Origin: a virus
Virus genome (UHGV): UHGV-1377581
Strand: one strand, 5' to 3'
Length of the DNA: 48,047 nucleotides
Positions 5,202 to 45,610 of the stretch are shown here, one piece after another. The notes below the pieces were generated by a model. It was not told where the DNA came from, did not search any database, and was given only the letters and a program-made list of their open reading frames with translations. How positions within the stretch are numbered: the first letter of the stretch is position 1; each line of letters starts with the position of its first letter. Position numbers and translations under genes: made by a program.

Positions 5202-5274
5202 GGCGTTTGCTCCTGATTGGTTGATGGTGTAATAATACCCGCACGCGGCGGGTATTGTTTAGCAATTAGTGCTG
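5202..5274 (-). promoter_or_regulatory. intergenic cassette E1 (palindrome cAGCAC-TAAT-TGCTA, hairpin ACCCGC/GCGGGT, TATTAT, leader)
   Basis: Matches the repeated tripartite element. 22-bp spacer. Confidence 0.5.
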
Positions 5275-5502
5275 TTTTGCGAAATACTCCGCGCCTTCAT
5301 GCGATTTAAATTCAATCAATTCTCGTTCAAGAATTTCTGGCCAGTCAGCGACCGGGGTTCCGTTGTCCATGAACTCCATGTAGGTTCCGTCGATGGTGTC
5401 AGCAAAGGCTAACTTTTCCTCATCCGTCCCAATGAAGCCGTATTTGTCCAGCAATTCAACCACGATCCGAAGATACTCGGTGAAAGATTCTATCTGTTCC
5501 AT
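5266..5502 (-). CDS. hypothetical highly acidic protein
   Basis: 78 aa, about 25% Asp+Glu. Confidence 0.55.
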   Translation of the reverse strand: MEQIESFTEYLRIVVELLDKYGFIGTDEEKLAFADTIDGTYMEFMDNGTPVADWPEILERELIEFKSHEGAEYFAKQH

Positions 5503-5505
5503 TTT

Positions 5506-6237
5506 TCAGATCCCACGTTTGCGCATACGCTTTTTAGCTAATGACGGGCAAATCTCGCTTACCGGAATGTAAAGCGTCTTTTGCTCCTCGCCCGGCTTGA
5601 GTTTGCGCATGATGAAAATCACGCTGCCCTTGTTGTTGTTGTCGACTGGTTTACCGCTTAGGCCGTTGATGAAGGCCAGGAGACCGGATCGGCTTAGTTG
5701 CGTTCCGTCTTCATCCTCCGTGACGTCTGCGACAATCCAAATGATCTCAGCCGCTGCCTTCTGTGCGTCGCGGAACCACGCCGTAGAGTTGTCGCCGGGA
5801 AGCAAAATATCGATCTGGTTGTCATGCTCCATCTGCTCAATGGCTTTCAGCACGAAGGGATCCGGGAACGAGTAAGGCGGGTTAAGCCATACGTGCTTAT
5901 TTTTCCCCCACCAGCGCTTGAGACAATCGGTCTTTTCGTCGTAAAACTTCCGGCAGACGGTGTTGCTTTCTTCGGCGGCGGCGTCAAGATCGTAAGGGCC
6001 ATAACGCTCTTCCATGTATGCGATCAGGCTGCGATCGGTCGCCCACTTATCGCGCACGATATCTGGCGTTTTGCTCCCGGCGTATCGGTTGCCTGTTACC
6101 TGGTAAAACTTGTCTGGCCTGACAGCCTGATAGTGTCCGCCAGTAGCAAGGGCATTGCCAATAAACGTTTCGCGCTCCAATTGCTCAAACGTGATGAATG
6201 CGTCACGAGTGTCTTTGTCTGTGATATCTTTTGCCAT
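5506..6237 (-). CDS. dam: DNA N6-adenine methyltransferase (phage Dam family)
   Basis: NPPY motif (WLNPPYSFPDPF). Typical phage Dam length. Confidence 0.85.
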   Translation of the reverse strand: MAKDITDKDTRDAFITFEQLERETFIGNALATGGHYQAVRPDKFYQVTGNRYAGSKTPDIVRDKWATDRSLIAYMEERYGPYDLDAAAEESNTVCRKFYDEKTDCLKRWWGKNKHVWLNPPYSFPDPFVLKAIEQMEHDNQIDILLPGDNSTAWFRDAQKAAAEIIWIVADVTEDEDGTQLSRSGLLAFINGLSGKPVDNNNKGSVIFIMRKLKPGEEQKTLYIPVSEICPSLAKKRMRKRGI

Positions 6238-6239
6238 TA

Positions 6240-6518
6240 TTATTTAACCTCGCAGGTTAAGGTATTATGAAAAGCGCTCACACTAACATCAATGGTGTTT
6301 TTGTTGACTACATAATGAGCGTACCCGAAAGGAGTAAGCAGTTTATATTGATTTTCGCCAGCGCCATCAATTATAACGCCAGAGTTTTCACCCTTGACAA
6401 CTTTCATATATTTGCTAGTTACCTCGAACGCCTCACGACCGCAATCATATGTTTTCGGTTTTTCGCTGCAACCAATAAGACCAAGAGACAGAACAACTAA
6501 AGCCAGCATCTTTTTCAT
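6240..6518 (-). CDS. small lipoprotein, Cor-like superinfection-exclusion candidate
   Basis: Signal peptide plus lipobox LIGC. Real start placed at the ATG with SD GGAGTG (the ORF track extends it to 6527). Confidence 0.5.
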   Translation of the reverse strand: MKKMLALVVLSLGLIGCSEKPKTYDCGREAFEVTSKYMKVVKGENSGVIIDGAGENQYKLLTPFGYAHYVVNKNTIDVSVSAFHNTLTCEVK

Positions 6519-6527
6519 TTTCAACAC

Positions 6528-6597
6528 TCCGTTCTTCGTTTCGATGGGGTAATAATACCCGGCTTTCGCCGGGCGGTTTTAACAAAAAGTGCTATTT
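6528..6597 (-). promoter_or_regulatory. intergenic cassette E2 (TAGCAC-TTTT-TGTTA, hairpin CCGGC-GAAA-GCCGG, TATTAT, CCCCATCGAAAC)
   Basis: Repeated element. The TAG is the stop of the VRR-NUC gene. Confidence 0.55.
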
Positions 6598-6999
6598 GAT
6601 GGCATCGCAGAAAGCGATCTTGAATTGCTCGAAGCCATAGGCCACGGCGGCGAATCCGCCGCGACGGCGAACGGCAGCAAGGAATTCCCTTTGCTCCTTG
6701 CTCACTGGTGACGCCTGCGCCTTACCCTGGCGCTTTAGCTCGATGGCCGCGAACGGGTATTTGCCGCCGAACCCAATCAGGATCAGAATGTCGCTAACGC
6801 CCTTCAGCAACCCCATTTGATGATCGATAACCGCGCTCGCCTTGTGCTTGCTGCCTTCATTGACTGTATGCCAGAACAGATAATCAGGGTATTCGTGCCG
6901 CAGCCACGAAACGCTATTCATCTGATCGATTTTCTCAAGCGGGCAAGCCTTTACAGGCCCGCCGTAGTATTCGAGATAATCACCTTTATCAGTAATCAC
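6592..6999 (-). CDS. VRR-NUC domain nuclease
   Basis: PD-(D/E)XK-type VRR-NUC signature region (ILILIGFGGKYPFAAIELKRQGK). GTG start overlapping the helicase stop. Confidence 0.55.
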   Translation of the reverse strand: MITDKGDYLEYYGGPVKACPLEKIDQMNSVSWLRHEYPDYLFWHTVNEGSKHKASAVIDHQMGLLKGVSDILILIGFGGKYPFAAIELKRQGKAQASPVSKEQREFLAAVRRRGGFAAVAYGFEQFKIAFCDAIK

Positions 7000-9032
7000 T
7001 ATTCGTCTCCAAAATCTTTGCGTGAAATAATATCTTCCTTCTTACCGTTAACGCGATGCGTTACGCGCTTCGGCGCTCGGAAGTAATGCGCATTCTCAAG
7101 GATTTTTCGCGCATTTTTCATCCCGCCCAACTTGCCGCGCATTACCGCGTCGTCAACGTGCTGGAAGACTGCCTTTTGCCGCCACAACTTGCCGCAAATC
7201 TTATTCTCTGATTCCGGGAAGAACTTTTCCCTTGCGGTGAATCGCTCGCCGTCATGGTTCAGTAGCACGTAATTGAAGATGATCCCGGACTGATTGCGAG
7301 TCAAGCCGATATCGAACCCGACAACATCATACCAGTCATTCTGCGTGTAGTGCTTCCCGGTGAGATTGTCGTTGGGATCTTTAAGCTGCACCCCGCAGCA
7401 TCTGCACTGGCGAGCAACAATATCGTTTTCAGCGTAACACCCCTTTACCTTAATCTTCCCTGTTCGCGGGTCTTTCTGGTCTTCGCAGCGCTGCGAGATC
7501 CAGAAGTATTCGCAACGATTGCCGTTGCTGTCTTTGTGGATGCATCGGCGGGCGTACTCGCTATTTTCTCCCTTGCATACCGGGCAAATTTTCGGGCCGT
7601 TCTTGCTGCTCTTGCGTCTTTGGTATTGTGCCTGCTCAAGAATCGGATCGAAATATAGCTGGCCCAAATCGTCCATAGTCCCGGCGAAGTCCCAAACTAA
7701 ATGGTCTTCCTTAACCCACGAGTAAGGCGGCTGTTTTTGCCAGTCTTTTAACAGTCGCATACCGCGCCCCAAAAGCTGAATAAGCAACGTAAGCGATCCG
7801 ATCTTGCGCAATATCACCGAAAAATCCCAAAACGGAACGTTAACGCCAGTGGTTAGGGCCATCACCTGGAAGATGTATTTAATCTCCCCGCGATTCGCCT
7901 TATCCAAAATTTCGCCGCGTTTCTTTGAGTTGGTCTTCTCGGTGATGATCGCGTATGTTGCGTCCGGCGGTAAGTAGCTTGCCGCTTCCTTGCAATGCCG
8001 CTGGCCAGCGCAAGTAATAAGAACGCCGTTTCGGGTTTTCGCACGCTCAACGACCTTTTGCATAATCAGCTTCGTCATTTCGCCGGATTCATGGATTTTC
8101 TTTTCCATCTTGCGCAAGTCTTCAGCGCTAAAATCCTGCGTACCGTCCTGACTGGAACCGTGGAACTCTGACAGGTCATACCCTAACCCATCCGCCTCGG
8201 TGTCACCGAAGATGGTGGGAACTACCGAACCGAACTCGACAAGATAGTTTGTGTTAATGTCGGTGATCTGCTCGCGCCAGAATCCCGGCTGCGTCTTGTC
8301 TTCCTGCAAGATGGGAACCACCCCGCGAAACTCCGACCCCGTATAACCGACGATGCGAAGTTCTCGCCCTGTCTTCTCAAGGCACCTCCGCATTAACTCA
8401 CAAATGACGATGGTGTACTGCGTGCGACCGCCGCCGAATTCTACGTCGTCGAATTTTTCGTCGTATGGGTGGTCGGCATCGACCAGTTCCCCGTTCACGC
8501 GATACGGCTTATCCTTCGGTCTGCTCATGTACTCGAACGATTCATTGTTGGCGATCGCTTCCGCCAGATCTTGCCAGTCAACCTGGTGGCATTCGTCAAT
8601 TGCCAGAACTGAAGGCACGTAGTCGCCAAGCATTTTAAACAGGCCATTAACCACCGTCCCTTCAGATCCGACGACGATCGGGAAGTATGCCGCCTTTGTG
8701 CCTAACCCGGCGCAATAAACGGAGTTGGGAACATCGAGGTTACTGATCTCCTCGGAATCCTGCTTCACGATCTCGGCCTGGCGAGCAAGAACCATCATGG
8801 GTAAGTTCATTGCCTTGCACTGCGCCGCGAGCATGGCGATCATGATGGTTTTCCCGGCGGAAACCGAAGCCTTAATGTAAAAAGGATGTTCATATTTTGC
8901 GATCCGCTTCGCGGTCTCAATATACGCAACCGCCTGATACGGGTAAGGAACGATATTTCCTACGGTGAACCGCTTTTGTATTAGCGGGATCTTGTCTGCG
9001 TAGGCTTCAATTTGTTGTTCAATTGTGAGCAT
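6999..9032 (-). CDS. SNF2/DEAD-like ATP-dependent DNA helicase
   Basis: Walker A (SAGKT), DExH (AIDECH), helicase C-terminal motifs and a Cys4 cluster. Start placed at MLTIEQ (SD AGGA), because the longer ORF to 9101 would run through its own promoter element. Confidence 0.75.
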   Translation of the reverse strand: MLTIEQQIEAYADKIPLIQKRFTVGNIVPYPYQAVAYIETAKRIAKYEHPFYIKASVSAGKTIMIAMLAAQCKAMNLPMMVLARQAEIVKQDSEEISNLDVPNSVYCAGLGTKAAYFPIVVGSEGTVVNGLFKMLGDYVPSVLAIDECHQVDWQDLAEAIANNESFEYMSRPKDKPYRVNGELVDADHPYDEKFDDVEFGGGRTQYTIVICELMRRCLEKTGRELRIVGYTGSEFRGVVPILQEDKTQPGFWREQITDINTNYLVEFGSVVPTIFGDTEADGLGYDLSEFHGSSQDGTQDFSAEDLRKMEKKIHESGEMTKLIMQKVVERAKTRNGVLITCAGQRHCKEAASYLPPDATYAIITEKTNSKKRGEILDKANRGEIKYIFQVMALTTGVNVPFWDFSVILRKIGSLTLLIQLLGRGMRLLKDWQKQPPYSWVKEDHLVWDFAGTMDDLGQLYFDPILEQAQYQRRKSSKNGPKICPVCKGENSEYARRCIHKDSNGNRCEYFWISQRCEDQKDPRTGKIKVKGCYAENDIVARQCRCCGVQLKDPNDNLTGKHYTQNDWYDVVGFDIGLTRNQSGIIFNYVLLNHDGERFTAREKFFPESENKICGKLWRQKAVFQHVDDAVMRGKLGGMKNARKILENAHYFRAPKRVTHRVNGKKEDIISRKDFGDE

Positions 9033-9112
9033 GGGCAATCCTAATTTGTCATTCGCATAGTTGCGTGTATAATACAGTGAACATTTTATCATGTTTAACA
9101 AAAAATGCTATG
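9033..9112 (-). promoter_or_regulatory. intergenic cassette E3 (TAGCATTTTTTGTTAAAC, hairpin AACAT/ATGTT, TATTAT) driving the helicase
   Basis: Same architecture. 21-bp spacer. Confidence 0.45.
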
Positions 9113-9123
9113 AGGGTTAAATT

Positions 9124-9525
9124 ATGGAACAAATGGCAAAGGTTGATAAGCGAACCTTGAACGGCAATAACGGAACATCGCGCGGGAAAGATAAGAAGAA
9201 ACGTAAGCGACCGACTGGTTACTACGTGCTGAAGGATGAGGTTCGCGCCGGGTTGACTGCGCGGATGGAGCTGGTTATTGATGCCTTCGGTGGCATCGCT
9301 GGAACGGCAAAAGAGTTGGGAGTTAGTATCCAGGTTGTTCAGCAGTGGCGTAAGCGCGGCATGATCTCAGCCGATGGCGCTTATCTCGTACATAAGAGCT
9401 ACCGCCGGAACAATTGCAAAGGTTTCCGCGCCTCATTCTGCCGACCAGATTTAAGATTTGACAGCAACGGCAAGCCAGTGACGCGCCGATGCGACCGCCG
9501 GGAAATGCTACGCGTAGTCCGATAG
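9124..9525 (+). CDS. Cro/YdaS-like HTH DNA-binding protein
   Basis: HTH segment TAKELGVSIQVVQQWRKRGMIS. Divergent from the helicase. Confidence 0.5.
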   Translation: MEQMAKVDKRTLNGNNGTSRGKDKKKRKRPTGYYVLKDEVRAGLTARMELVIDAFGGIAGTAKELGVSIQVVQQWRKRGMISADGAYLVHKSYRRNNCKGFRASFCRPDLRFDSNGKPVTRRCDRREMLRVVR

Positions 9526-9600
9526 CACAATTTGTCTAAACACTAAACGCCTGCCGGGTTATCATTCTCGTGTAGGCGTTTTTTATTTGGAGGTAACGAC
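9523..9600 (+). promoter_or_regulatory. cassette E4 overlapping a terminator (TAGCACAATTTGTCTA, 22-bp spacer, TATCAT inside hairpin AACGCCT...AGGCGTT plus T6)
   Basis: The stop TAG of the Cro-like gene is in the palindrome. Hairpin plus U-tract immediately before the primase RBS GGAGGT. Confidence 0.55.
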
Positions 9601-10560: not shown

Positions 10561-10580
10561 TTAAATATTGACCAGAATTT

Positions 10581-10616: not shown

Positions 10617-10617
10617 T

Positions 10618-10980
10618 GCCTGAAATTCAGTGGCTTGCAACTGGTCGAACCACTTTAGGTAAGATTTAGTAAGATGAATCTTACGTAAATTTCGCGCAAA
10701 ATTTAACCAATTAACCGCAATATATAGATAGTAAGTATATGATAAATAACAATATTATTATTATCACTCTGTCTGTATCTATCAATCTTGGTAAGATTTC
10801 TCCGGGGTACGTGTCTTTTTTCGCTGGATTTCGCGCAAGATTTTTCATGGATATTTACCTATAGGGATCTTACTATCTTACCGATTTGCATTAACTCGAT
10901 GAAATATATAGGAAAAATCACGTAAGATGCATCTTACTAAATCTTACGTAAATTTCGCTCATTTTTTGACCAGTTGGCGA
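10618..10980. promoter_or_regulatory. regulatory region with perfect palindromes GTAAGATGAATCTTAC (about 10669) and GTAAGATGCATCTTAC (about 10922), a direct repeat ATCTTACGTAAATTTCGC, and an AT-rich module (10719-10808)
   Basis: Multiple operator-like inverted repeats. The AT-rich 90-bp module recurs inverted at 42331-42420. Confidence 0.55.
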
Positions 10981-11056
10981 ATAGCACTTTTTGCCTTGCA
11001 CCTGGAATCGTGATGCGTATACTTAACTCAACGAAACCACAAACGGAGTGATACCA
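10981..11056 (+). promoter_or_regulatory. cassette E5 (ATAGCACTTTTTGCCTTG, TATACT, leader CTCAACGAAACC) driving the recombination operon
   Basis: Box1/box2 match without an upstream gene. Confidence 0.5.
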
Positions 11057-12103
11057 ATGGCTGAAGCAATTTTTAAGGCATACACCAACGCGGAATTATC
11101 CAACGATGATTACCACGATCCTAACTCCTGGTGCGCCAGATACGTTAGCGGCTCAAGCCTCGGCGAGATTTACGCAACCTCCCCGGCCCACTGGAAATAC
11201 AAGGAGCGAGAAGAAACAGCCGCGCTTTCATTCGGCACTTGCTCCCATACCTGCATGCTTGAGACGTCCAAATTTAATGGCGAGTACCTGCGAGCGACCG
11301 CGCCGGGCGACGTTAAGGATCTGATTACTTCGAAGTCGGCATTGTCTGCGAAATTGAAAGCGTGTGGCCTGATTGGGACGTCCAACAAGGACTACCCCGA
11401 ATTGCTGGAAATGGCATACCGCGCCGGGATTGATGTTAACGTGTGGTGGGCGATCGAACTCTGCGACGAAAGCGCCGCCATCAACTCAGGCCGGAAGCTG
11501 GTCAAGGATTCTGATTTCGATGCGGTCGTGCAAATGCGAAACGTGATGCTGGCTAACCCACGGCACGCGGCGTGCATTGAATCGGATACAGCGCAACGCG
11601 AGTTGTCAATCTTCGGCGAAATTTTCGGCGTCCCGGTAAAGGTTCGGCTCGATCATGTTGACGTCGTGTCAGATCCCGAACTCATCAAAGAGTGGGGGTT
11701 TAACCCGGATGAAGTTTTCGAAGTGGTGGTGATTACCGACTACAAAACTACTCAGACCTCTAAACCGGATGACTTTGGGCGACTGGCGTTCAACCTGGGA
11801 TACTATCTCAAAATGGCATTGCAGCGCGATCTGTTCGTTAAGACGTACAACGAAAGACGCCCGGTGGTTGTCCGCCTGCTGACTCAGGAGAAAAAATCAC
11901 CGTTCGCGCCTCTCGCGTTCACGTTAACGGATCAGCAGATTGAGATCGGGCGGAAGCAGTATCAAAGCGTGATTCACCAGTACGCCGAATGCGTCAAGCA
12001 TGACGTTTGGCCGTCATACGAATCGAACGCAGCGGAAGTGAAGTTGCCCACGCCGCAATTCGTGAAATACATGTTCCCGGAAGTATACGGCACAAATAGC
12101 TAA
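11057..12103 (+). CDS. RecE/lambda-exo-like PD-(D/E)XK exonuclease
   Basis: D...ITDYKT nuclease core. First gene of the exo-ERF-SSB module. ATG with SD GGAGTG (the ORF track starts at GTG 11048). Confidence 0.55.
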   Translation: MAEAIFKAYTNAELSNDDYHDPNSWCARYVSGSSLGEIYATSPAHWKYKEREETAALSFGTCSHTCMLETSKFNGEYLRATAPGDVKDLITSKSALSAKLKACGLIGTSNKDYPELLEMAYRAGIDVNVWWAIELCDESAAINSGRKLVKDSDFDAVVQMRNVMLANPRHAACIESDTAQRELSIFGEIFGVPVKVRLDHVDVVSDPELIKEWGFNPDEVFEVVVITDYKTTQTSKPDDFGRLAFNLGYYLKMALQRDLFVKTYNERRPVVVRLLTQEKKSPFAPLAFTLTDQQIEIGRKQYQSVIHQYAECVKHDVWPSYESNAAEVKLPTPQFVKYMFPEVYGTNS

Positions 12104-12162
12104 ACACTACGGCGCACTTGTGATATAGTGCGCTCCACCAATCAGGAAAAGGAAAGTTTGTC

Positions 12163-12819
12163 ATGCGTACATCTGAAAGTTTCAAAGAGATCGCCGTTGC
12201 GTTAATCAAAGCGAAGTCTGGCTTCGTCGCCGCGAAGAAAAGCGGGAAGAATAGCCACCTGGGTAACACCTACGCCAATCTCGGCGATATCCTGGACGCC
12301 ATCGGGCCATCGCTGGAAAAGAACAAAATTATGGTTATTCAATCAATGATGGATACCAGCACAGACAAGGTTATGCACCTTGAAACGATGTTCCTGCACG
12401 AATCTGGCGAGTGGATGGCGTTTCAGTTCAACATGCCGATCAGCAAAACCGTTGAGCAAGCGTATGGATCGACCACCTCATACGCTCGCCGTTATGCGTT
12501 AGCCGCCGCGCTGGGCATCAAGCAGGCCGACGATGACGCAGAGATCGCGAAGATGAAGCCGCAAGACTTCAAAAAACGCATTGATGCGTGCGAAGACCTC
12601 GAATCTCTCCGCGAGATTTACAAGCTGGCTAAACAGACGTTGACGCCTGCGGAATGGAAGGTGACGGAAGACGATATCACGAAGCGCCAGGCGCAACTAA
12701 AAGTGACGCCAGCGAACGGATTTAACCCCGGCAAGCCACAAGATGTTGCGAAACGTGAGCCGGAACAGGTAGAATCAAAGCCTGAACCTGAATCACAAGA
12801 TATCTCATCTTTCAACTAA
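12163..12819 (+). CDS. ERF-family single-strand annealing protein
   Basis: ERF-like N-terminal domain, acidic C-terminal tail. Positioned between exonuclease and SSB. Confidence 0.55.
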   Translation: MRTSESFKEIAVALIKAKSGFVAAKKSGKNSHLGNTYANLGDILDAIGPSLEKNKIMVIQSMMDTSTDKVMHLETMFLHESGEWMAFQFNMPISKTVEQAYGSTTSYARRYALAAALGIKQADDDAEIAKMKPQDFKKRIDACEDLESLREIYKLAKQTLTPAEWKVTEDDITKRQAQLKVTPANGFNPGKPQDVAKREPEQVESKPEPESQDISSFN

Positions 12820-29854: not shown

Positions 29855-29930
29855 TTGAAACTCCTGTTTGTGTGTTTTGACTTAACGAGATGAAGAATAG
29901 CACGAATTGCTAAACGGTCAAAGGTTTTTT

Positions 29931-37951: not shown

Positions 37952-38033
37952 TTGTTTAGCTCCTGATTGGTTCGCTTCAATAAGGCCACTATATCAAATG
38001 GCCTTGCGGAAGTTTTAGCAAAAAGTGCTATTT
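37952..38033 (-). promoter_or_regulatory. cassette E7 (TAGCACTTTTTGCTAAAAC, hairpin AAGGCCA/TGGCCTT, TATAGT)
   Basis: Repeated element. 22-bp spacer. TAG is the stop of the upstream gene. Confidence 0.55.
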
Positions 38034-38780
38034 GACGTCGCGCCACAAACTAACCAGGGCGTCGGCCATCTGGCGGAGAACTTTCGCATGGGTCTGCGCG
38101 TCATCACCTTCCGGCGTGCGCATGGCTTCACGGATTTTCTCGATCGTGTTGTGGGCGGCGTTAAGCTCTGACTCAAGCTCTTTAACCCGGTCAGCGAGCG
38201 AGGCTTCTTTTGCGCCTTCCGGTTTCACGATCACCGACCGCGACAGCATGCCCAGGGCTGCAACTGCATCGCTTGCCGACTTCACGCCCTCTTTGAAGTG
38301 CGCGGATTTTTCAGCGCCGATCTTAAATCCACGTACAACGCCCCGCGACTCATCTCGCCCGAACATATTCAGCATGCGGTCGACCATTGATTCGAGATCG
38401 CGATCTTTATCGCGTTCGTGGGCCTTCAGGTCAGCAAAGAACAAGGGCGACTCAGTGGAGGTAACTCCGCCGAACATTGACGCCGAAGTGTGGAGGGGGT
38501 ATTTCAGCGCATCGCTAACTAACCCGCCGAAGGAGAGTTCGCCGCCAGCGAAACAGTTATTGATTTGCAACTCAATGTTGAACTGACCGCCGCCGATGTA
38601 GTGCGAGTTGCGCGGGTTGACCGCGTACATGTTGCCTTCGTCATCGGTGATTTTGTACAGTGAATCCCCGGTGTATTTGGTGAAAGGCTCGGCCTCATAG
38701 CGCTTGCCTTTGGTGAATTTCGCGCCCACGCCAGCGGGAGAATCGGCGTTCGGGGTCAGGATGAATTTGTAGGTGCTCAT
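38028..38780 (-). CDS. hypothetical 250-aa protein
   Basis: ATG with SD AGAGGAAAA (the track start 38843 would cover cassette E8). Confidence 0.55.
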   Translation of the reverse strand: MSTYKFILTPNADSPAGVGAKFTKGKRYEAEPFTKYTGDSLYKITDDEGNMYAVNPRNSHYIGGGQFNIELQINNCFAGGELSFGGLVSDALKYPLHTSASMFGGVTSTESPLFFADLKAHERDKDRDLESMVDRMLNMFGRDESRGVVRGFKIGAEKSAHFKEGVKSASDAVAALGMLSRSVIVKPEGAKEASLADRVKELESELNAAHNTIEKIREAMRTPEGDDAQTHAKVLRQMADALVSLWRDVK

Positions 38781-38854
38781 GATTTTTCCTCTTTGGTTGG
38801 TGTGGGGATAGTATGCACCATCCCAGGACGGCGGTTTTAGCAATTCGTGCTATT
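38781..38854 (-). promoter_or_regulatory. cassette E8 (TAGCACGAATTGCTAAAAC, 24-bp spacer, TACTAT, leader CCCCACACCAAC)
   Basis: Near-identical twin of E15. Confidence 0.55.
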
Positions 38855-39059
38855 CAATCACCTTGATTACGCGCTCCGGGCGATTGGGTGCGCCGGATTT
38901 GTGGAGCCAGTAGCGGGCCTGCGTCAACTGGCCGAAGTGCTCGACCGTCACCCACCAGAAGAATGCAACACGCCGCTGTGCTGCATACCACTCCACCGGA
39001 CGCCCGAACGCATCAAGCGTCGCAATGCGCACGATCCTGAATTTTCGGTTAGAAGCCAT
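38850..39059 (-). CDS. hypothetical protein
   Basis: ATG MASNRKF overlapping the stop of the upstream gene. Confidence 0.45.
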   Translation of the reverse strand: MASNRKFRIVRIATLDAFGRPVEWYAAQRRVAFFWWVTVEHFGQLTQARYWLHKSGAPNRPERVIKVIE

Positions 39060-39246
39060 AAGCCTGACTCTCCAGGGAAGCGAGCGATGAGAACGTGTAA
39101 GTTCTGGCGCATGAGCAATCGCCCACGAATCCGCAGATCTCAATGCTTCCGGCCTCAATGGTCAGGGATATAACTTTCATATCCAGGTGAAAGGCGAACA
39201 TTGCAAGCGCTTTATGTGCGCGATGCATATATTCGAACTGGTTCAT
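39049..39246 (-). CDS. hypothetical Cys-containing protein
   Basis: ORF. Confidence 0.45.
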   Translation of the reverse strand: MNQFEYMHRAHKALAMFAFHLDMKVISLTIEAGSIEICGFVGDCSCARTYTFSSLASLESQAYGF

Positions 39247-39512
39247 TTGTCTATATCCTTGAGTTGATAATCACATACGAATGAGAACTCTTTTTCGGCT
39301 GGATTTTTTGGGTCAATGGGGCGATAGTTGCACATGACCGAATGCTGCCTTAACTCACCCCAACATACCTGATCTACTTCTTCGCTCCACCCGTCGCAAG
39401 CCTCACCGCGATAACATGCTATAGCATCATCTGCGTATTGCTTCGCTTGCTCGGCAGTTTCGAATAGTTCGAACCCACATTCAGGATCGTAACCAAAGAA
39501 TTTGAATTTCAT
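39243..39512 (-). CDS. hypothetical protein
   Basis: ORF, ATGA overlap. Confidence 0.5.
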   Translation of the reverse strand: MKFKFFGYDPECGFELFETAEQAKQYADDAIACYRGEACDGWSEEVDQVCWGELRQHSVMCNYRPIDPKNPAEKEFSFVCDYQLKDIDK

Positions 39513-39763
39513 TTAAAGATCGCCCCTTTGATTTTATTCCAGAAGGCGAACGGTACGCGCTTTTGCTTCAACTCCACCACGTCGTGATCGTAGAAGCCCA
39601 AGAGCGCGCCGCATTTCTTCGGCGGTACATCCCCAATCACATCACCCATGAAGTACCAGCTATCGCCATCCTTAAAGTAAACGCCTACGCACGCACCAGG
39701 GGCGGCATGGGTAGCAGTGTCCGGCAGGTTGTAGGTCTTGCCGCGAGATTCAAATTGTTGCAT
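39509..39763 (-). CDS. hypothetical protein
   Basis: ATG with SD AAGGAGA. Confidence 0.5.
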   Translation of the reverse strand: MQQFESRGKTYNLPDTATHAAPGACVGVYFKDGDSWYFMGDVIGDVPPKKCGALLGFYDHDVVELKQKRVPFAFWNKIKGAIFK

Positions 39764-39855
39764 TCTTCTGTCTCCTTGCATAATCGGTTTGTTAATATAC
39801 TTCTTGATAATTACGCCCGATCCTCTGACCGGGCGTTTAGCAATGCGTGCTATTT
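39764..39855 (-). promoter_or_regulatory. cassette E9 (TAGCACGCATTGCTAAAC, hairpin CGCCCG/CGGGCG)
   Basis: Repeated element with a divergent box2. Confidence 0.5.
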
Positions 39856-40170
39856 CAGTCCGCGAAGGTCAATCTTCGATTTTGCCCAATCAGGGAAGCG
39901 AGCCATTGACCCGATTTGGTCTAGCCTGTTTTTGGCCTTCCCTACGTCGCACCATGCTTCACCCTGGCCCTCAAAAATGCGAACCTCTTCGGCTGTAGAC
40001 TCATAGGCCCAAATTGCACCGTCGGCATCAATGGCGATCGTGTTGGCCCAAATCGGCACGTCAATCGACCGCGCGTCGTCGGGGTCGGGAATGTTAAGCT
40101 GGAAGGCAACAACCCTCCTCTTCTTGAGGTTTGCCACCACTTGTTTTTTTGACTTAATTTCGTGAATCAT
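39850..40170 (-). CDS. hypothetical protein
   Basis: ATG with SD AAGGAGAA. Confidence 0.5.
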   Translation of the reverse strand: MIHEIKSKKQVVANLKKRRVVAFQLNIPDPDDARSIDVPIWANTIAIDADGAIWAYESTAEEVRIFEGQGEAWCDVGKAKNRLDQIGSMARFPDWAKSKIDLRGLK

Positions 40171-40180
40171 TGCGTTCTCC

Positions 40181-40393
40181 TTACAGGAACATTCCAGCCA
40201 GGCGCAGGCGGTTGATGATATCGTCACGCTTGACGCGGAGGCCGTCATAGTAGTCTTCTAGTTGGGGATCCCATGACGGCAGTTCAAGCATTGCTTTCAT
40301 CTCATCGCAGGCTACTTTAAGCGCGTTGAAGTTCTGCTCGACGGCGCGACGGTGGGCTGCTGCGTTCAGTTCGTTGTTGTGGTTGCCAATCAT
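40181..40393 (-). CDS. hypothetical protein
   Basis: ORF preceded by cassette E10. Confidence 0.5.
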   Translation of the reverse strand: MIGNHNNELNAAAHRRAVEQNFNALKVACDEMKAMLELPSWDPQLEDYYDGLRVKRDDIINRLRLAGMFL

Positions 40394-40465
40394 GTTTTTG
40401 CTCCTCTGTTTCGATGGGGTAATAATAACGCATTGCCCCGATCGAGTTTTAGCAAAAAGTGCTAC
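40394..40465 (-). promoter_or_regulatory. cassette E10 (TAGCACTTTTTGCTAAAAC, 22-bp spacer, TATTAT, CCCCATCGAAAC)
   Basis: Repeated element. Confidence 0.55.
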
Positions 40466-40686
40466 TCGTGCTTCTTGAACTCGTGAACCTGGTTCCCGCC
40501 GGAATGGTCTTCAATATCCACTCGGTCGCAGGTCACGTAAAAGCCGCGAATGACGGTGAAGCGCCACTTTCCTAACCAGTGGAAGTAAACGCCGTGTTCG
40601 CTGCCCTGGACGGCTTTGGTTGATGAGTATGGGATCGGCATCCCGGCGAAGGTGCGAAGTTTGGTTGTCGCTGAAAAACGTGGCAT
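40462..40686 (-). CDS. hypothetical protein
   Basis: ATG after SD AGGAGG. Confidence 0.5.
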   Translation of the reverse strand: MPRFSATTKLRTFAGMPIPYSSTKAVQGSEHGVYFHWLGKWRFTVIRGFYVTCDRVDIEDHSGGNQVHEFKKHE

Positions 40687-40879
40687 GGCCATTCCTCCTG
40701 GCGTTTGCCGTGCTGTGGTTGGAATATAGCGCCACCGAAGCGGCGCTATTGCGATTATTTTCCCTGGCGTGCAAGGTGGCGCTCTTTGAGTTTCTGCCAG
40801 TGCCAGCGCATGACGTGTTCGTTATGGTAGTTGCTGGTTGAATATGGATTCTTCTTGCTCATCTTCATCTCCAGGTTGC

Positions 40880-41059
40880 TTACTTGATACGAACTTCAAC
40901 TTCAATGTCGGACTGCGGCGCGAAGAGTTGGGCCTTGCCATTAACGCGAATTGTGAGAATGTTCGCCTTGCGATCTGCTGCGAGAACCAGGCGAAACTTG
41001 CCAGCAAACTTGACCATCATACCCGGCTTAACTTCACTCATCTTGATAACCTTATCCAT
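40880..41059 (-). CDS. hypothetical small protein
   Basis: ATG MDKVIKM with SD GAGGTG. The track's TTG start at 41125 would cover cassette E11. Confidence 0.45.
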   Translation of the reverse strand: MDKVIKMSEVKPGMMVKFAGKFRLVLAADRKANILTIRVNGKAQLFAPQSDIEVEVRIK

Positions 41060-41135
41060 CTTCATCACCTCAGTTCGTTGTCGATGGGTAAATAATACCG
41101 GATCTCGCCATCGGCGTTTTAGCAAAAAGTGCTAT
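41060..41135 (-). promoter_or_regulatory. cassette E11 (TAGCACTTTTTGCTAAAAC, hairpin GCCGATGGC, TATTAT, CCCATCGACAAC)
   Basis: Repeated element. 22-bp spacer. Confidence 0.55.
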
Positions 41136-41341
41136 CTTTCAACCTCGTGCATATCGCCAACGGAAAGATAATAAGCGATATCAAGGCGGCTCATTGTGGG
41201 GTGGGGCCAGCCGCATTCATGCCAAATAACATCGCCCTCGCCTTTAGTCCACATAGTTTCGCCATCCCAGCGCCAAAGGCGGTTGTTGAGGCGCGATCCG
41301 TAGACCGCGCCAGGTTTTACATCGCTCGCCTTAAAATTCAT
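41132..41341 (-). CDS. hypothetical protein
   Basis: ATG MNFKASD. Confidence 0.45.
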   Translation of the reverse strand: MNFKASDVKPGAVYGSRLNNRLWRWDGETMWTKGEGDVIWHECGWPHPTMSRLDIAYYLSVGDMHEVER

Positions 41342-41483
41342 AATCGACAACCCCGAACTCGTTAACAATCTGCGCCTTGTAAAATCCACCGTTTGCCGCC
41401 AGGTTGTAGCACGCCGCCACGGTCTCGAACTCGCGCACTTCTGGCTTGCTGTTTTCGTGTTCCCAGGTGATCAGAGTAATCAT
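41331..41483 (-). CDS. hypothetical small protein
   Basis: ATG MITLITW with SD GAGGAA. Confidence 0.45.
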   Translation of the reverse strand: MITLITWEHENSKPEVREFETVAACYNLAANGGFYKAQIVNEFGVVDYEF

Positions 41484-41561
41484 TTCGGTTTCCTCGGTTC
41501 GTTGTCGATGAAGAGATAATACCCGATCTCCCTGACCGGGTTTTAACAAAAAGTGCTATTT
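41484..41561 (-). promoter_or_regulatory. cassette E12 (TAGCACTTTTTGTTAAAAC, hairpin CCCGG/CGGG, TATTAT, leader CATCGACAAC)
   Basis: Repeated element. 22-bp spacer. Confidence 0.55.
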
Positions 41562-42140
41562 CGTGGTGGTTGCCTCCTGGCTGATATCGCTGGCGTTCAA
41601 TCCAAGATCGATAGCCGCGAACAAGGTCGCCTTGTAAATCCCGGTCAGGGCATTCCCGGCGAAGTCTACGGCAAGAGCGGCCACTAAACCCTTAATCCGC
41701 TCCCGCTCGGAGATAGCGCCCTGCCGCCTGTACGCCTCGGCCTCCAGGTGTGAGGCGGTCGTTGCGTCGAACTCGGTAAAGACGGAGATTAACCCCGCCC
41801 CCAGGCTCACCCGCAACACTTCTCCCGGCTCCAGGAGTTTCAGCAACGGCCTGCGGAAATGGTTGTCGACCGGATTAACGCCGAACTTCTCCACGAACTC
41901 CTCCGCCGTCATCTGGATACGCCGCCCGCCATCCAGGAACATGCGTCGGATCTCGGAAGAGCGGTTGCCAGTGAATGTGCCTTCAGTCTTCGCTGCTTCC
42001 TGGCTCCGTCCGGCTGGCCTGGTGGCTTCACCAAACGTGATGGATTGCAGCCATTCATGGTAAGCGGCTTGCTTATCTGCGTCGTACCGCATCCACTCGG
42101 ACACGTCGACCTCTTCGAACTCATAGCCTTTATATTGCAT
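41556..42140 (-). CDS. hypothetical protein, first gene of the leftward early operon
   Basis: ORF. Possible start MQYKGYE with SD GGGGGAAA. Confidence 0.5.
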   Translation of the reverse strand: MQYKGYEFEEVDVSEWMRYDADKQAAYHEWLQSITFGEATRPAGRSQEAAKTEGTFTGNRSSEIRRMFLDGGRRIQMTAEEFVEKFGVNPVDNHFRRPLLKLLEPGEVLRVSLGAGLISVFTEFDATTASHLEAEAYRRQGAISERERIKGLVAALAVDFAGNALTGIYKATLFAAIDLGLNASDISQEATTTK

Positions 42141-42155
42141 TTGTGTTTCCCCCAC

Positions 42156-42718
42156 ACTTACGGCGTTTGGTAATGTTTCGGAAGGTGATAATACAGGCCG
42201 CAGGCCGCGCCGTCAAAGGGTTTCGGCGTGTTTGGTAAGATTTGCTGTCATCCACTATATATCCCTATATACATTTTTTCGCGGCGGAACATCTAAAAAT
42301 TATGGCTTGCGCAAGGAGAATCCATAACCTCCCCGGAGAAATCTTACCAAACATATATAAAGATAAAGAGTAATAATAATAATATTATTATTTATCATAT
42401 ACTTACTATCTATATATGGGCTTATATTGGTCACTTTTTGTGCAACTTTCTGGTAAGATTTTTCCTCCCACACATTCCCACACGCCCTAAATGTTGGGGA
42501 AACACACGCACCGTTTTGGCAGGATTTGAACGGCGAATTATGTGCATAGTGCATACATTTATGCAATTCGTTGCAAATCATGAAACACTCCAAAAATCGT
42601 TGCACAAAATGAAACAATCAAAAGCAATCATGATTCGTCAAAACTAATCACCAGGGAATCAGGTGCAATCACCATCTATTCCGCTATTCCGAATCGGTGG
42701 AATAATCAGCAATCGCAG
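42156..42718. promoter_or_regulatory. divergent regulatory region: GGTAAGAT motifs (about 42232, 42341, 42451), inverted AT-rich module (42331-42420), TGCATA/ATGAAACA/TTGCAA repeat cluster (42500-42660)
   Basis: Direct reading. 650-bp non-coding stretch between divergent operons. Confidence 0.55.
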
Positions 42719-42803
42719 GAATAGCATTTTTTGTTAAAACCCACCCGATCGGCTTTGCTATGATGACTTCAACGAAACGAATTGAGCCAAAGGGGCTAAA
42801 GCT
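42719..42803 (+). promoter_or_regulatory. cassette E13 (ATAGCATTTTTTGTTAAAAC, hairpin CCGATCGG, TATGAT, leader CAACGAAAC)
   Basis: 22-bp spacer. Drives the rightward operon. Confidence 0.55.
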
Positions 42804-43085
42804 ATGAAACTTCAACGCGAATCAATCAACCTGGGCAGCGAGTATAACGGCAAGTGGAACTTCGTTATCATGGATAGCGACGCCGACAAGATCGAAGCGG
42901 TTGAGGAAGCGTTATGCGAAATGGCCACTGGCTTCTCTGTCGGCGGCGAAGATAAAACCTGGGGCGACTACTGCGACCAATGCCCTTGCTATGACGATGG
43001 TTATGGCTCCGGCTTCTGGATTCCGGTCGAAGATGTTCCGGCTTTCAAAGAGGCGTACAAGGCAGCGAAGAAAGCAGTGAAATAA
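42804..43085 (+). CDS. hypothetical acidic protein with CxxCxC cluster
   Basis: ORF with SD AAAGGGG. Acidic composition. Confidence 0.55.
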   Translation: MKLQRESINLGSEYNGKWNFVIMDSDADKIEAVEEALCEMATGFSVGGEDKTWGDYCDQCPCYDDGYGSGFWIPVEDVPAFKEAYKAAKKAVK

Positions 43086-43157
43086 GCACGAATTGCTAAA
43101 CGCCGGGCCGCGAGGCCTGGTATAGTTAACCCATCGAAACCAGTCAGGAGATTAACC
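43083..43157 (+). promoter_or_regulatory. cassette E14 (TAAGCACGAATTGCTAAAC, hairpin GGCC-GCGA-GGCC, TATAGT, CCCATCGAAACC)
   Basis: 22-bp spacer. The TAA stop is inside the palindrome. Confidence 0.55.
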
Positions 43158-43352
43158 ATGAAAGCATTTGCGGATGTAGTCGTCGGGGATAAAATTCAAT
43201 ATGGCGCAAGCGATCTGTTCCGTACCGTAACCGATATCGAGAAGGGTCGCGGCGTCAATGGATTTACTGTCTTCGTGGTGCTCGACGGCGTTGCACGCTT
43301 TGCGGTTGACGCTCGTGATTGGGTTTTCTGCATCGAGAAGGGCCAGGTATGA
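43158..43352 (+). CDS. hypothetical protein
   Basis: ATG with SD CAGGAG. Confidence 0.55.
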   Translation: MKAFADVVVGDKIQYGASDLFRTVTDIEKGRGVNGFTVFVVLDGVARFAVDARDWVFCIEKGQV

Positions 43353-43510
43353 GGAAACGGCGGGCCGGGGAGGTGGTTTGCACCTGCGATGCTTACCCCT
43401 TCCCTCATCGAATGTTCGGCGGTTCATGCAACGGGATCGCCATTGTCATTGCCAGTGTTGGCGGCGCGGAGTGCCAGCATTGCCAGCTACTGAATAACGG
43501 GGCGTGCTAG
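43349..43510 (+). CDS. small Cys-rich putative zinc-binding protein
   Basis: ATGA overlap with the upstream gene. CTC...C...C..C pattern. Confidence 0.45.
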   Translation: MRKRRAGEVVCTCDAYPFPHRMFGGSCNGIAIVIASVGGAECQHCQLLNNGAC

Positions 43511-43587
43511 GTGCTGGCGGGTATCGAGAATCCGGTCGAATGCCATTACGTCGCCGACTTCATCCACCAAAACGAGGTTAAAATATA

Positions 43588-43965
43588 ATGCGAACAGTTA
43601 CCATTTCGAACAGCTTTTCCTACATCATCGGATCGCCGGAAGAGCGTATCAAGGCCATGCGCGACAAGGCGACCAATGACGTTACCGATGCCTTCAGTGC
43701 TGCGGCTAAAGCTGCGATCACGCATTACTACGGTCGTGGCCCGGAAGAGTTCAGCGCGGAAAGTGCGCCTTTCCTGGTGGTCAAAAAGGAAGGTGGCCAT
43801 GTATGGCAAATCAACGACAAGCAGACTGGCGAGTTTATTTTCGGATCGGTTCCGTGCCGGGTAGGAAGCAACGATGTTACCATCCAGGAACTCGGCGATC
43901 ATGAACCTCGCGTTCAGCGCACGATCTATATTAGCCAGGATTACACGACCTGCGTTCCGGCATAG
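43588..43965 (+). CDS. hypothetical protein
   Basis: ORF with RBS. Confidence 0.55.
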   Translation: MRTVTISNSFSYIIGSPEERIKAMRDKATNDVTDAFSAAAKAAITHYYGRGPEEFSAESAPFLVVKKEGGHVWQINDKQTGEFIFGSVPCRVGSNDVTIQELGDHEPRVQRTIYISQDYTTCVPA

Positions 43966-44037
43966 CACGTTTTGCTAAAACAACATGGCGGGATAGTGGC
44001 ATACTATCCCCACACCAACAAGCGAAGGAGCTACACA
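43963..44037 (+). promoter_or_regulatory. cassette E15 (TAGCACGTTTTGCTAAAAC, hairpin GGGATAGT/ACTATCCC enclosing TACTAT, leader CCCCACACCAAC)
   Basis: Twin of E8. 24-bp spacer. Confidence 0.55.
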
Positions 44038-44265
44038 ATGAACCATCCGAAGACTGATTCCATTCTCGCCGTCCTGAACGCGCATGGCCGCGTCGTTCTC
44101 CGCATGAACCGCGCCTCCGGCTTCACTCAGATCACGATCACGAAGTCGAAGGGCCGCTACATCATCGGGACGGTTCCGGGCGGTCGCCTCGTTCAGTCCT
44201 CCCTGGCTGGCGTCACGCTGACGCTGGAATCGAACAGAATGTTCATTGAGTCGTGGAGAAGCTAA
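44038..44265 (+). CDS. hypothetical protein
   Basis: ATG with SD AAGGAG. Confidence 0.5.
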   Translation: MNHPKTDSILAVLNAHGRVVLRMNRASGFTQITITKSKGRYIIGTVPGGRLVQSSLAGVTLTLESNRMFIESWRS

Positions 44266-44606
44266 TGAAAGAAGGCGATCGCGCATACCTGGAAGTCAAC
44301 GGCGAAATGCATCATTGCACCGTGCTTCTGAAAAGCAAGGGCGTTTACATGTTCGTTAATGAGTTCGGCGAGGAGGTCGCGACAGTGCAACTTTTCTGGT
44401 CGACGAAGAATCCCGGCGATAGCTCCCTGACTGGTCGACCGGATCACGTTGGGACGAAGGAAAGCATGAAGTGCTGCGAGGCTCCAGGATGCGGGGCTGT
44501 CTATAAGGTAAAGGCGGCGGATCTTAAACGCGGCTGGGGTAAAACCTGTTCGAAGTCATGCGCCGCCAGTTTGCGAGAATTTAACCGGAGGAAAAGCAAT
44601 GGCTGA
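44265..44606 (+). CDS. hypothetical protein with C-terminal C4 zinc-finger-like motif
   Basis: TAATG overlap. CCEAPGC...CSKSC. Confidence 0.5.
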   Translation: MKEGDRAYLEVNGEMHHCTVLLKSKGVYMFVNEFGEEVATVQLFWSTKNPGDSSLTGRPDHVGTKESMKCCEAPGCGAVYKVKAADLKRGWGKTCSKSCAASLREFNRRKSNG

Positions 44607-44838
44607 TAATTACGACGATGCCTACTGGCACCGTTTCTTAACCGCCCAGGATGCTGGGCTTAACCGCGAATATTGCATCAAAGTAGCCAATCAGGAAATG
44701 ACGCTATCGGATGCCCTGGGCAGTATGGATATGGATGCCGAAAGTCTGCCGATGCGTGACGATCTGGTAGAGCAAGAAGAAAATAGTTGCGGCTGCACTG
44801 GTGAAGAAGGTTGCCGCGAATGTATCCCTTTCTGGTGA
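44599..44838 (+). CDS. hypothetical acidic protein with C-terminal Cys cluster
   Basis: SD GGAGGAAAA. CGCTGEEGCREC. Confidence 0.5.
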   Translation: MADNYDDAYWHRFLTAQDAGLNREYCIKVANQEMTLSDALGSMDMDAESLPMRDDLVEQEENSCGCTGEEGCRECIPFW

Positions 44839-44845
44839 GGTGACA

Positions 44846-45538
44846 ATGAAAAAGCGCGTTGTGTGGTGCATGTTTGACGGTTCCGGGATTATGGGCCTGC
44901 CGTGGGCAATTCGCGGTTGCGATGTATATTGCTTTAACGCAGATTCCGGCGACCACGGCGAGTACAAAATCCGCATGGAGCATGCAAAAATCCAGTATGT
45001 CAACATCTGGATTGACAAAGATTTCGACGTGAAGCGCACGATCCTGGGCATCCCGGATCCTGACATTATTTTCGCTTTCCCTTCCTGCACGCTGTTAGCG
45101 CATAGCGGGGTGAAGCACGCCCGGCAGACTCAGGATGTTTTATCAGCCGCCGATGATGCGAAGATGATCGAGCAATTGGGCGACCAATATAATTGCCCCT
45201 GGATGGTAGAAAACCCGGTTGGAAAATTGTCGACGCTTTGGCGCAAGCCGGATTTTTATTTCCACCCTCGCGACTTCGGCGGGTATGTTGCTCCGCATGA
45301 GGAAGTTTGGCACCCAAAAATGCCGCACTGCGACAATTACACGAAGAAAACGTGCATCTGGCACGGTAACGGATTCGTGGAGCCGAAACGGTTATTACCG
45401 CCGGAAGGTGTGGAGGGCGTAGATTTCTTTTGGGCGTGGAAATTCCTGGGCGGCAAGTCTGAAAGAACAAAGATGCTTCGCTCTATCACTCCGCGCGGAT
45501 TCGCTCGCGCCGTGTTCCAGGCGAATTTTAATGAATAG
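44846..45538 (+). CDS. DNA cytosine-5 methyltransferase-like protein (short, non-canonical)
   Basis: Motif I-like FDGSG, motif IV-like FPSC, motif VI-like MVENPVG. Start MKKRVVW with SD GAGGTGA. Confidence 0.5.
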   Translation: MKKRVVWCMFDGSGIMGLPWAIRGCDVYCFNADSGDHGEYKIRMEHAKIQYVNIWIDKDFDVKRTILGIPDPDIIFAFPSCTLLAHSGVKHARQTQDVLSAADDAKMIEQLGDQYNCPWMVENPVGKLSTLWRKPDFYFHPRDFGGYVAPHEEVWHPKMPHCDNYTKKTCIWHGNGFVEPKRLLPPEGVEGVDFFWAWKFLGGKSERTKMLRSITPRGFARAVFQANFNE

Positions 45539-45610
45539 CACAAATTGCTAAACGTACCCGCTTAATTGCGGGTATAGTTATTCCATCGAAACGCAACGGA
45601 GAAAACAAGA
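45536..45610 (+). promoter_or_regulatory. cassette E16 (TAGCACAAATTGCTAAAC, hairpin ACCCGC/GCGGGT, TATAGT, TTCCATCGAAAC)
   Basis: 22-bp spacer. Confidence 0.55.

Follow-up and report, generated by a model that had tools for sequence, protein, structure and literature searches.

A repeated early-promoter cassette of T1-like phages whose conserved box has the sequence, orientation and spacing of a class II marbox

The window analysed here, the whole 48,047-nucleotide stretch of virus genome UHGV-1377581, carries many copies of a gene-boundary cassette in which a conserved 20-nt box (box 1) is followed by a spacer, often with a hairpin, a -10 hexamer and a leader. We find that box 1 is the already published 21-nt direct repeat of phages TLS and T1 and that, as judged from sequence, orientation and spacing, it is a consensus class II marbox. 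That the cassettes are promoters of the activator-dependent class II type is well supported by their predicted architecture, and as the protein that reads the box we favour, with moderate confidence, a host activator of the MarA/SoxS/Rob family (RamA in Klebsiella). Within the searchable literature, the marbox identity of the box appears to be new.

In TLS, 21 copies of a 21-nt repeat (aaATAGCACnnnTTGnTAAAA) lie about 76 nt before start codons, co-oriented with transcription, and similar repeats have been stated for T1, Rtp and Rogue1 (German, DeGiulio, Ramsey, Kropinski and Misra 2024, PHAGE 5:173, PMC11447400). The same study recognizes only three sigma70-like promoters in TLS and lists the function of the repeat as an open question, naming stoperators, enhancers and UP elements as candidates (PMC11447400). 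The window box is the same as the TLS repeat in sequence, orientation, distance to the start codon and in the A/T/G subgroups of its central triplet. Neither the main text nor Table S1 of the TLS paper describes a downstream -10, a start point, a hairpin or a binding protein, and the copy described here is in a Webervirus. Our literature search found nothing linking the repeat to a reader or mapping transcription starts in these phages.

The first 25 kb of the window are 88-97% identical to Klebsiella Webervirus genomes (Drexlerviridae, T1-like), and its orientation is the reverse of that of phage KLPN1. The cassettes sit in two early arms that contain small unknown genes, helicase, primase, RecE, Erf and methylases. 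Every one of the 15 copies listed by a first-pass annotation made from the sequence alone was found in its place and oriented as its downstream gene, and two more were added, a degenerate one at 12087-12106 (plus strand) and a perfect one at 29897-29916 in reverse orientation. A "half copy" proposed at 21898-21930 is merely a terminator that starts with ATAGCAC. With a single exception, copies in the window are co-oriented with transcription. The cassettes stand far above chance: allowing up to one mismatch, TAGCA-N5-TGCTA occurs 14 times in the window against 1.07 expected, and with up to two mismatches TAGCAC-N3-TTGCTAAA gives 16 matches against 0.3 expected. A weight matrix trained only on cassettes of T1, Rtp and TLS, and applied to the window and to simulated windows, scored 11 window cassettes above 41 bits, while the null maxima were mostly below 6 bits.

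The box-to-start-codon offset in the window is 72-90 nt, and the corrected ATG starts lie at this distance 3' of the box, as with the helicase (ATG at about 9033, 677 codons). Longest-frame calls with TTG starts do overrun cassettes, as had been claimed, in the minus-strand open reading frames (ORFs) 6999-9101, 40880-41125 and 41331-41549. The TAG of the box had been said to be the upstream stop codon in 12 of 16 copies; we find this in 11 window cassettes, and two others have an in-box TAA. The arrangement is rarer outside the window (five cassettes in T1, nine in Rtp, seven in TLS), and it is often seen because the box begins with TAG and the genomes are compact.

In order to define the promoter anatomy we pooled 98 boxes from the window, KLPN1, T1, Rtp and TLS, 86 of which have a good -10 hexamer. 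The 22 bp noted earlier between TTGCTA and the hexamer correspond to 18 bp from the end of the 20-mer, and this distance is exact in 67 of the 86 boxes, across the five genomes. A logo built from 58 cassettes of four genera reads a-A-A-T-A-G-C-A-C-[T/G]-W-W-T-T-G-Y-T-A-A-A-a-c for the box, which spans about -50 to -31 from the predicted +1 (centre about -40.5) with GCAC distal and AAA proximal, and it reveals no sequence conservation in the 18-bp spacer. The hexamer, T-A-t-a-a-T, is part of an extended -10 of the form TGnTAnnnT, in which -14 is G in 48 of 58 cassettes and -15 is T in 27. The predicted start lies 7 nt past the -10, with a pyrimidine at -1 (53/58) and A at +1 (50/58). The conserved leader of the first-pass annotation stands in part: exact ACCCCATCGAAAC is not enriched by itself (up to three mismatches), but its core, Y(-1), A(+1) and TCGAAAC, is conserved in register, and the position of the Y/A start 7 nt past the -10 means that ACCCCATCGAAAC extends over the discriminator and into the first RNA bases. 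In place of the CATCGAAAC leader, several start codons follow another recurrent leader or ribosome-binding context, (A)CCAATCAGGAG, with sites in the window at 5201-5230, 12140-12160, 37955-37980 and 46530-46555.

At 17 bp upstream of the -10, where a -35 would be, the cassettes have AAAACN, as does E. coli micF, and a generic sigma70 scan of positions 37500-46000 found ordinary promoters no commoner than in shuffles. The fixed spacing, the extended -10, the start dinucleotide and the missing -35 argue for dependence on something bound at the box; together with the lack of a sigma70 excess they agree with the earlier proposal of a class II activator-dependent promoter without a usable -35. Each cassette would then be a self-contained early promoter of this type, whose RNA probably starts at the conserved A in CCCC-A-TCGAAAC and carries a 20-30 nt leader with a Shine-Dalgarno sequence. 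It could be argued that no dedicated activator is involved, sigma70 holoenzyme alone using the extended -10 and the box being either a roadblock ("stoperator") or, for the alpha C-terminal domain, an enhancer or UP-like element. Promoters with a TGn extended -10 can function when there is no -35, parts of the box are A/T-rich, and these options were put forward in the TLS paper (German et al. 2024). We nevertheless find this quite improbable, since the invariant GCAC and TTG core and the strict W-only positions are unlike UP elements, the box at -50 to -31 is downstream of the usual UP position, the fixed 18 bp to the -10 argues against a free-standing roadblock, and the lytic phages considered here are without an L5-type repressor.

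We compared the box logo with two definitions of the host site, the soxbox/marbox consensus AYNGCACNNWNNRYYAAAYN, that is AYnGCACnnWnnRYYAAAYn (PMC2064960), and a MarA motif derived from chromatin immunoprecipitation (ChIP), gcannwwntgnnaaa, stated to be "not a palindrome" (PMC12052159). The 58 cassettes fit 13 of the 14 specified positions of the former and all 11 of the latter, and the degenerate classes are kept as well: W10 in 58/58, A or T at position 9 in 57/58, R13 in 58/58, Y14 in 56/58 and Y15 in 57/58. With up to one mismatch, the 20-mer consensus is found 12 times in the window against 1.0 expected and 21 times in T1 against 1.3 expected; five window copies are perfect (0 expected), among them the box ATAGCACAAATTGCTAAACG of cassette 45535..45585. 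Exact matches to the ChIP motif number 14 in the window (0.7 expected), 20 in T1, 14 in Rtp and 19 in TLS.

The arrangement around the box is also that of a known host promoter. In E. coli micF, a box (ACAGCACTGAATGTCAAAAC) is followed by 18 bp, the hexamer TAGAAT, 7 nt and the known +1, with the same orientation and spacing as in the phage cassettes. With the micF box, the T1 copy at 39977 shares 17 of 20 positions, as does the window copy at 43962 with the marRAB marbox, the region of which was confirmed at 100% identity in E. coli genomes. According to the literature, class II marboxes are in forward orientation, overlap the -35 and are centred at about -41, in promoters without a -35. Cassettes and micF-type class II promoters thus share a fit to both consensuses, the forward orientation, the 18 bp to the -10, the absence of a -35 and the centre near -41. 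On the other hand, the phage boxes are much nearer to the consensus than chromosomal marboxes, are nearly identical to one another and are packed at 15-25 per 48 kb; they also differ in having the extended -10, often a hairpin, and fixed A3, T11 and T12, and their role as marboxes is a prediction of this work.

The first-pass annotation had taken the box as a palindromic operator centred at about -42 and suggested as one of its readers the phage's own regulator, encoded at 9124..9525 (T1 gp23 family). A Cro-like dimer on TAGCA-N5-TGCTA at this place would activate as lambda cI does at PRM, and would repress where the box lies over core promoters. The 5+5 core of the palindrome does hold, with half-site centres 10 bp apart, and A3 and T12, which the marbox consensus leaves free, complete it. 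The regulator is a Cro-fold protein conserved throughout the family, its near-consensus sigma70 promoter would have it made first, and one box abuts its ribosome-binding site while another overlaps its stop codon. However, conservation of the box is asymmetric: G4 is present in 58/58 cassettes while its mirror position 14 is C in 33 and T in 23, C7 faces T11 and not G, and the AA and AAA flanks are unmirrored. Because of this asymmetry the box is hardly a true dimer operator, and the cassette boxes all point with transcription. The lambda system is similar in having an inverted-repeat centre at -42 and a Cro-fold protein encoded by the phage; cI at OR2 differs from the situation here in that our box is asymmetric, the helix-turn-helix (HTH) is variable and the promoters are kept in phages without the regulator.

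The AlphaFold model of the 9124..9525 product (predicted local distance difference test score, pLDDT, 85.6) contains a single Cro-type HTH, its best structural matches being the Cro proteins of Xfaso-1 and N15, and the idea of a hidden two-HTH protein was discarded since the model shows one such fold only. The protein as a whole is well kept within the family; its HTH helices, though, vary most (conservation 0.49-0.56 versus 0.79-0.85 elsewhere), with 8-10 residue types at positions 69, 73 and 74 of the putative recognition helix; one lineage has a very different helix, KYPNILKW, and its boxes are unchanged. The invariance of the box alongside this helix, and the phages described below that keep the promoters without a regulator homologue, make the Cro-like protein an unlikely reader. 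Its basic N-terminal arm (DKRTxNGNNGTxRGxDKKxRKRPTGYY) and Cys-bearing C-terminal part (RASFCRPDLRFDSNGKP...C) are both far above the HTH in conservation, and its place between primase and helicase may reflect a role other than sequence-specific gene control.

The distribution of the box among phages bears on its reader. The element is not confined to the window: boxes are present in the related phages T1, Rtp, TLS and KLPN1, and altogether in seven of seven enterobacterial phages tested, while one Vibrio phage and one Pseudoalteromonas phage are at chance level. IME_EC2 (Murrayvirus) and C130_2 (Hungariovirus), enterobacterial podoviruses of two unrelated genera, have 6-8 perfect boxes each, co-oriented with genes and with the -10 at 18 bp; no homologue of the Cro-like regulator or of the sigma4-like exonuclease was found in them. 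They have helicase and primase in common with the window, and a BLAST comparison of all window ORFs with IME_EC2 returned helicase, primase, RecE, Erf and methyltransferases and nothing else. Vibrio phage 91E33-1 shares helicase, primase and exonuclease with the window; it has no marbox-type box and carries its own repeat, TTATGACACGGATT, whose 11-nt core is found 7 times. The Pseudoalteromonas phage shares the helicase, the only protein checked there. The sigma4-like exonuclease (3491..4621), a second reader suggested earlier, is likewise not supported, being absent from IME_EC2 and C130_2 and present in a Vibrio phage without the box. Since the box follows the host clade and not any identified phage regulator, a host reader is favoured. 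A divergent T1-like metagenomic contig, SRR10605995_911, has degenerate boxes (e.g. ACAGCACTAAATGCAAAACA) that keep GCAC, TG, AAA and the 18 bp to the -10 and have lost the palindrome.

Another phage factor, perhaps a sigma-appropriation pair or a small protein made early, might instead read the box and redirect host RNA polymerase in the manner of T4 MotA/AsiA. Virulent phages commonly bring their own activators of middle genes, many early ORFs are without a Pfam match, the GenBank record of Klebsiella phage KP15 calls two T1-type cassettes "putative middle promoter", and the factor could travel with the early/replication module common to IME_EC2, C130_2 and the T1-like phages. T4 middle promoters resemble the cassettes in their good -10 and in an upstream TGCT box that takes the place of the -35; but the MotA box is centred at -30, 11-13 bp from the -10, whereas the phage box, of different sequence, is at about -40.5 and 18 bp away. 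To our knowledge no MotA or AsiA is known in T1-like phages, no search having been made for either. Such a factor would have to fit by coincidence two independent host marbox definitions at micF spacing, the proteins shared with IME_EC2 are only those just named, and the sigma4-like exonuclease is found where the box is not. We accordingly give this explanation a low probability, much as for the Cro-like protein.

A host reader is also in keeping with what the phage genomes encode. A profile hidden Markov model of MarA/SoxS/Rob (MarA query checked against PDB 1BL0), run against six-frame ORFs of five T1-like genomes, gave a best E of 0.095 with hits at places that are not conserved, and Pfam detected no AraC-type HTH in 18 early proteins. 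A MarA-like tblastn match in IME_EC2 (E = 0.001) was rejected, being of low complexity and in a different frame from the annotated gene. A monomeric two-HTH host activator would bind the cassettes as at micF, displacing sigma region 4 from the -35 position, and would recruit RNA polymerase; by itself the polymerase would sustain some basal transcription from the extended -10. Within the family, Rob is the protein found even in unstressed cells.

Several points weigh against a host activator of this family. Without stress, cells contain little MarA or SoxS, and most Rob is sequestered, so that reliance of a fast lytic phage on them is not self-evident. Position 19 of the consensus, a Y, is A in 42 of 58 cassettes, although micF likewise has A there. 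The near-invariance of A3, T11 and in part T12 goes beyond what the marbox consensus specifies, and with A3 and T12 completing the 5+5 palindrome there may be a second, symmetric reader of the box. The sample behind the host tracking is small, seven enteric versus two marine phages, and in IME_EC2 and C130_2 the box could have been inherited, with an undetected small phage factor, together with the T1-like replication module. The searchable literature yielded no results on binding to the box, footprints, start sites or host mutants. Finally, any role of the hairpins, given that they are without U-tracts, is a guess.

These GC-rich hairpins are nonetheless frequent, being found in the majority of Drexlerviridae cassettes. 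A folding free energy of -8 or lower is reached at 13 of the 17 sites in the window and at 19 of the 23 in T1, compared with 19% of random 40-mers from T1. They come in two forms, one inside the spacer and ending at the -10, the other around the -10, with a spacer GGGG pairing with the CCCC before the start. Their sequence had earlier been said to vary while pairing is kept; orthologous cassettes have unrelated stems, not alignable variants, and some have none; cassettes of IME_EC2 and C130_2 are mostly without a spacer hairpin. The hairpin is for these reasons an overlay and not a part of the promoter. The terminator reading is weak, most hairpins lacking a U-tract and ending in TATTAT or CCCCA. 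Since the 5' arm is upstream of the predicted start in every case, only read-through RNA folds the hairpin; it would probably attenuate read-through or stabilise the 3' end of the upstream message, which is a guess, and transcripts begun at the cassette would escape it.

Box and hairpin might even be nothing but an RNA-level element, a 3' untranslated region with a terminator or processing site whose "-10" is just a U-rich tail. The stop codon is often within the box, hairpins are enriched, and the T1 GenBank record annotates three of them as rho-independent terminators. But many cassettes, including most of those in IME_EC2 and C130_2, have box and -10 without a hairpin, the box stem is only 5 bp, and only one window hairpin, at 41541-41521, passes a simple intrinsic-terminator rule within 37500-46000. 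TAnnnT, the G at -14 and the Y/A start are moreover features of promoters and not of tails, and we regard this explanation as very improbable.

The individual cassettes illustrate the range of these arrangements. On the minus strand, cassette 5225..5275 (box ACAGCACTAATTGCTAAACA at 5275-5256, hairpin in the spacer, -10 TATTAT at 5237-5232, predicted +1 A at 5225) precedes an ORF adjacent to gene 5266..5502, with its ATG at about 5201. Cassette 6545..6595 has box ATAGCACTTTTTGTTAAAAC at 6595-6576, hairpin CCCGGCGAAAGCCGGG, TATTAT at 6557-6552, +1 A at 6545 and the leader CATCGAAAC. The helicase cassette, 9061..9111, has box ATAGCATTTTTTGTTAAACA at 9111-9092, a 17-bp spacer without a hairpin and TATTAT at 9074-9069. 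Facing it on the plus strand is the near-consensus sigma70 promoter (9046..9073, TTGTCA-16-TATAAT) that serves the Cro-like regulator gene; the two -10 elements stand face-to-face and have bases in common (9046-9074), and the helicase box sits in the regulator's 5' leader, beside its Shine-Dalgarno sequence. P57/DR11 of TLS is laid out alike.

Three plus-strand cassettes follow. In the primase cassette, 9522..9572, box ATAGCACAATTTGTCTAAAC has a 1-nt insertion in its right half, and a true terminator hairpin, AAACGCCT...AGGCGTTTTTT with a T6 tail, has the -10 TATCAT (9560-9565) in its loop, as had been observed. The RecE cassette, 10981..11031, has a degenerate right half (ATAGCACTTTTTGCCTTGCA) and TATACT at 11020-11025, and the extra degenerate cassette 12087..12137 (box ACGGCACAAATAGCTAAACA), with TATAGT at 12124-12129 in a hairpin loop, lies before the Erf gene 12163..12819.

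The remaining minus-strand cassettes lie between 37981 and 41559. Cassettes 37981..38031 and 41085..41135 have the same box, ATAGCACTTTTTGCTAAAAC; the former has a hairpin, AAGGCCA...TGGCCTT, around TATAGT at 37993-37988 (+1 A at 37981), and the latter TATTAT at 41097-41092 (+1 A at 41085). In 38803..38853 (box ATAGCACGAATTGCTAAAAC) the -10 CATACT, at 38815-38810, is within the hairpin, and in 40415..40465 (box GTAGCACTTTTTGCTAAAAC, TATTAT at 40427-40422, +1 A at 40415) spacer GGGG pairs with leader CCCC. Cassette 39803..39853 has box and hairpin intact and a damaged -10, CGTAAT versus CATAAT in KLPN1, and 41509..41559 has box ATAGCACTTTTTGTTAAAAC, hairpin CCCGGTC...GATCGGG and TATTAT at 41521-41516. 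An ordinary sigma70 promoter at 42188..42216 (minus strand, TTGACG-17-TATTAT), at the head of the minus-strand early operon, is a candidate for its activator-independent entry point.

On the plus strand, cassette 42721..42771 (box ATAGCATTTTTTGTTAAAAC) has an extended -10, TGCTATGAT, with its hexamer at 42759-42764 and no hairpin in this genome. Cassette 43083..43133 (box TAAGCACGAATTGCTAAACG, with an in-box TAA stop) has a hairpin, an extended -10, TGGTATAGT, with the hexamer at 43121-43126, and +1 A at 43133. The -10 of 43962..44012 (box ATAGCACGTTTTGCTAAAAC), CATACT at 44000-44005, is within the hairpin, and 45535..45585 combines its perfect box with hairpin ACCCGC...GCGGGT, TATAGT at 45573-45578 and +1 A at 45585.

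The suggestion that the cassettes also serve as recombination modules receives some support. Homology to KLPN1 breaks at 38853, 39810 and 41560, each time inside a cassette (38803..38853, 39803..39853 and 41509..41559); the small-gene block 38853-39810 is wholly different from KLPN1, and it is at this gene-replacement junction, near 39810, that the 39853 cassette lost the key A of its -10. With 50-80 bp of near-identical sequence in some 15 repeats, the cassettes would be a substrate for homologous exchange of the genes between them. Two adjacent T1-type cassettes are also found in the T4-like Slopekvirus KP15 (GU295964.1, 10042-10425), one intact and one with a 1-nt deletion in the box, at least 99% conserved in more than 100 related genomes and labelled in the record as "putative middle promoter; discovered using MEME"; no homologue of the genes they flank was found in five T1-like genomes. 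The PeSL elements of T4-type phages, reportedly described by Arbiol et al. in 2010, are said to consist of a sigma70 early promoter (-35 and -10) plus a stem-loop, flanking small early genes. Like them, the cassettes are repeated modules of promoter and hairpin with exchange junctions at the modules; unlike them, they have no -35, are of the activator-site type, have an unrelated sequence and belong to a different phage family.

The single box that runs against transcription, the perfect copy at 29897..29916 (plus strand), is opposite to late transcription and makes up the spacer of the minus-strand promoter for the major capsid gene, TTGACC-16-TATTCT. The TGn and the first bases of the capsid -10 are provided by the end of this box, TGCTAT. 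The reversed box has the same place in T1 and TLS, is degenerate in KLPN1 and is absent in Rtp. By analogy, a protein bound there would repress: according to the literature, MarA represses pbpG from the corresponding position.

An AT-rich element of about 130 bp (TATAGATAGTAAGTATATGATAAATAA.AATATTATTATTAT...TTGGTAAGATTTCTCCGGGG) is present twice in the window, in inverted orientation, at 10677-10804 (plus strand), between primase and RecE, and at 42331-42615, in the divergent region where the early arms begin. KLPN1 has the two copies as well (1-292 and 33901-34031), and the element could be an origin, a pac-related site or a cluster of promoters.

With the repeat read as a class II marbox, a question that the TLS authors left open becomes accessible to direct experiments. 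There is also a gain for annotation, since the sequence suffices to call gene starts past the cassettes as well as about 15 promoters in each genome, and, if confirmed, the cassettes would offer compact, insulated, activator-responsive promoter parts. A broader proposal, which we put forward tentatively and hold less firmly than the identity of the reader, is that T1-like, Murrayvirus and Hungariovirus phages wire nearly their whole early programme to MarA/SoxS/Rob/RamA through 15-25 marboxes per genome. If so, bile salts, oxidative stress, salicylate and antibiotic-resistance mutations that raise the levels of these proteins would all increase early expression. As phage DNA replicates it would titrate them away and so shut down the host mar/sox/rob regulon, and this titration could act as a copy-number timer that relieves repression of the capsid promoter with its reversed box. 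T1-like phages are among the oldest model phages and Webervirus is among the most commonly isolated groups of Klebsiella phages. Confirmation would mean that a virulent phage family uses the antibiotic and stress regulon of its host as a switch for early transcription, which would bear on the interplay of phages and antibiotics in strains overexpressing RamA or MarA, and on the behaviour of these phages in the gut, where bile activates Rob.

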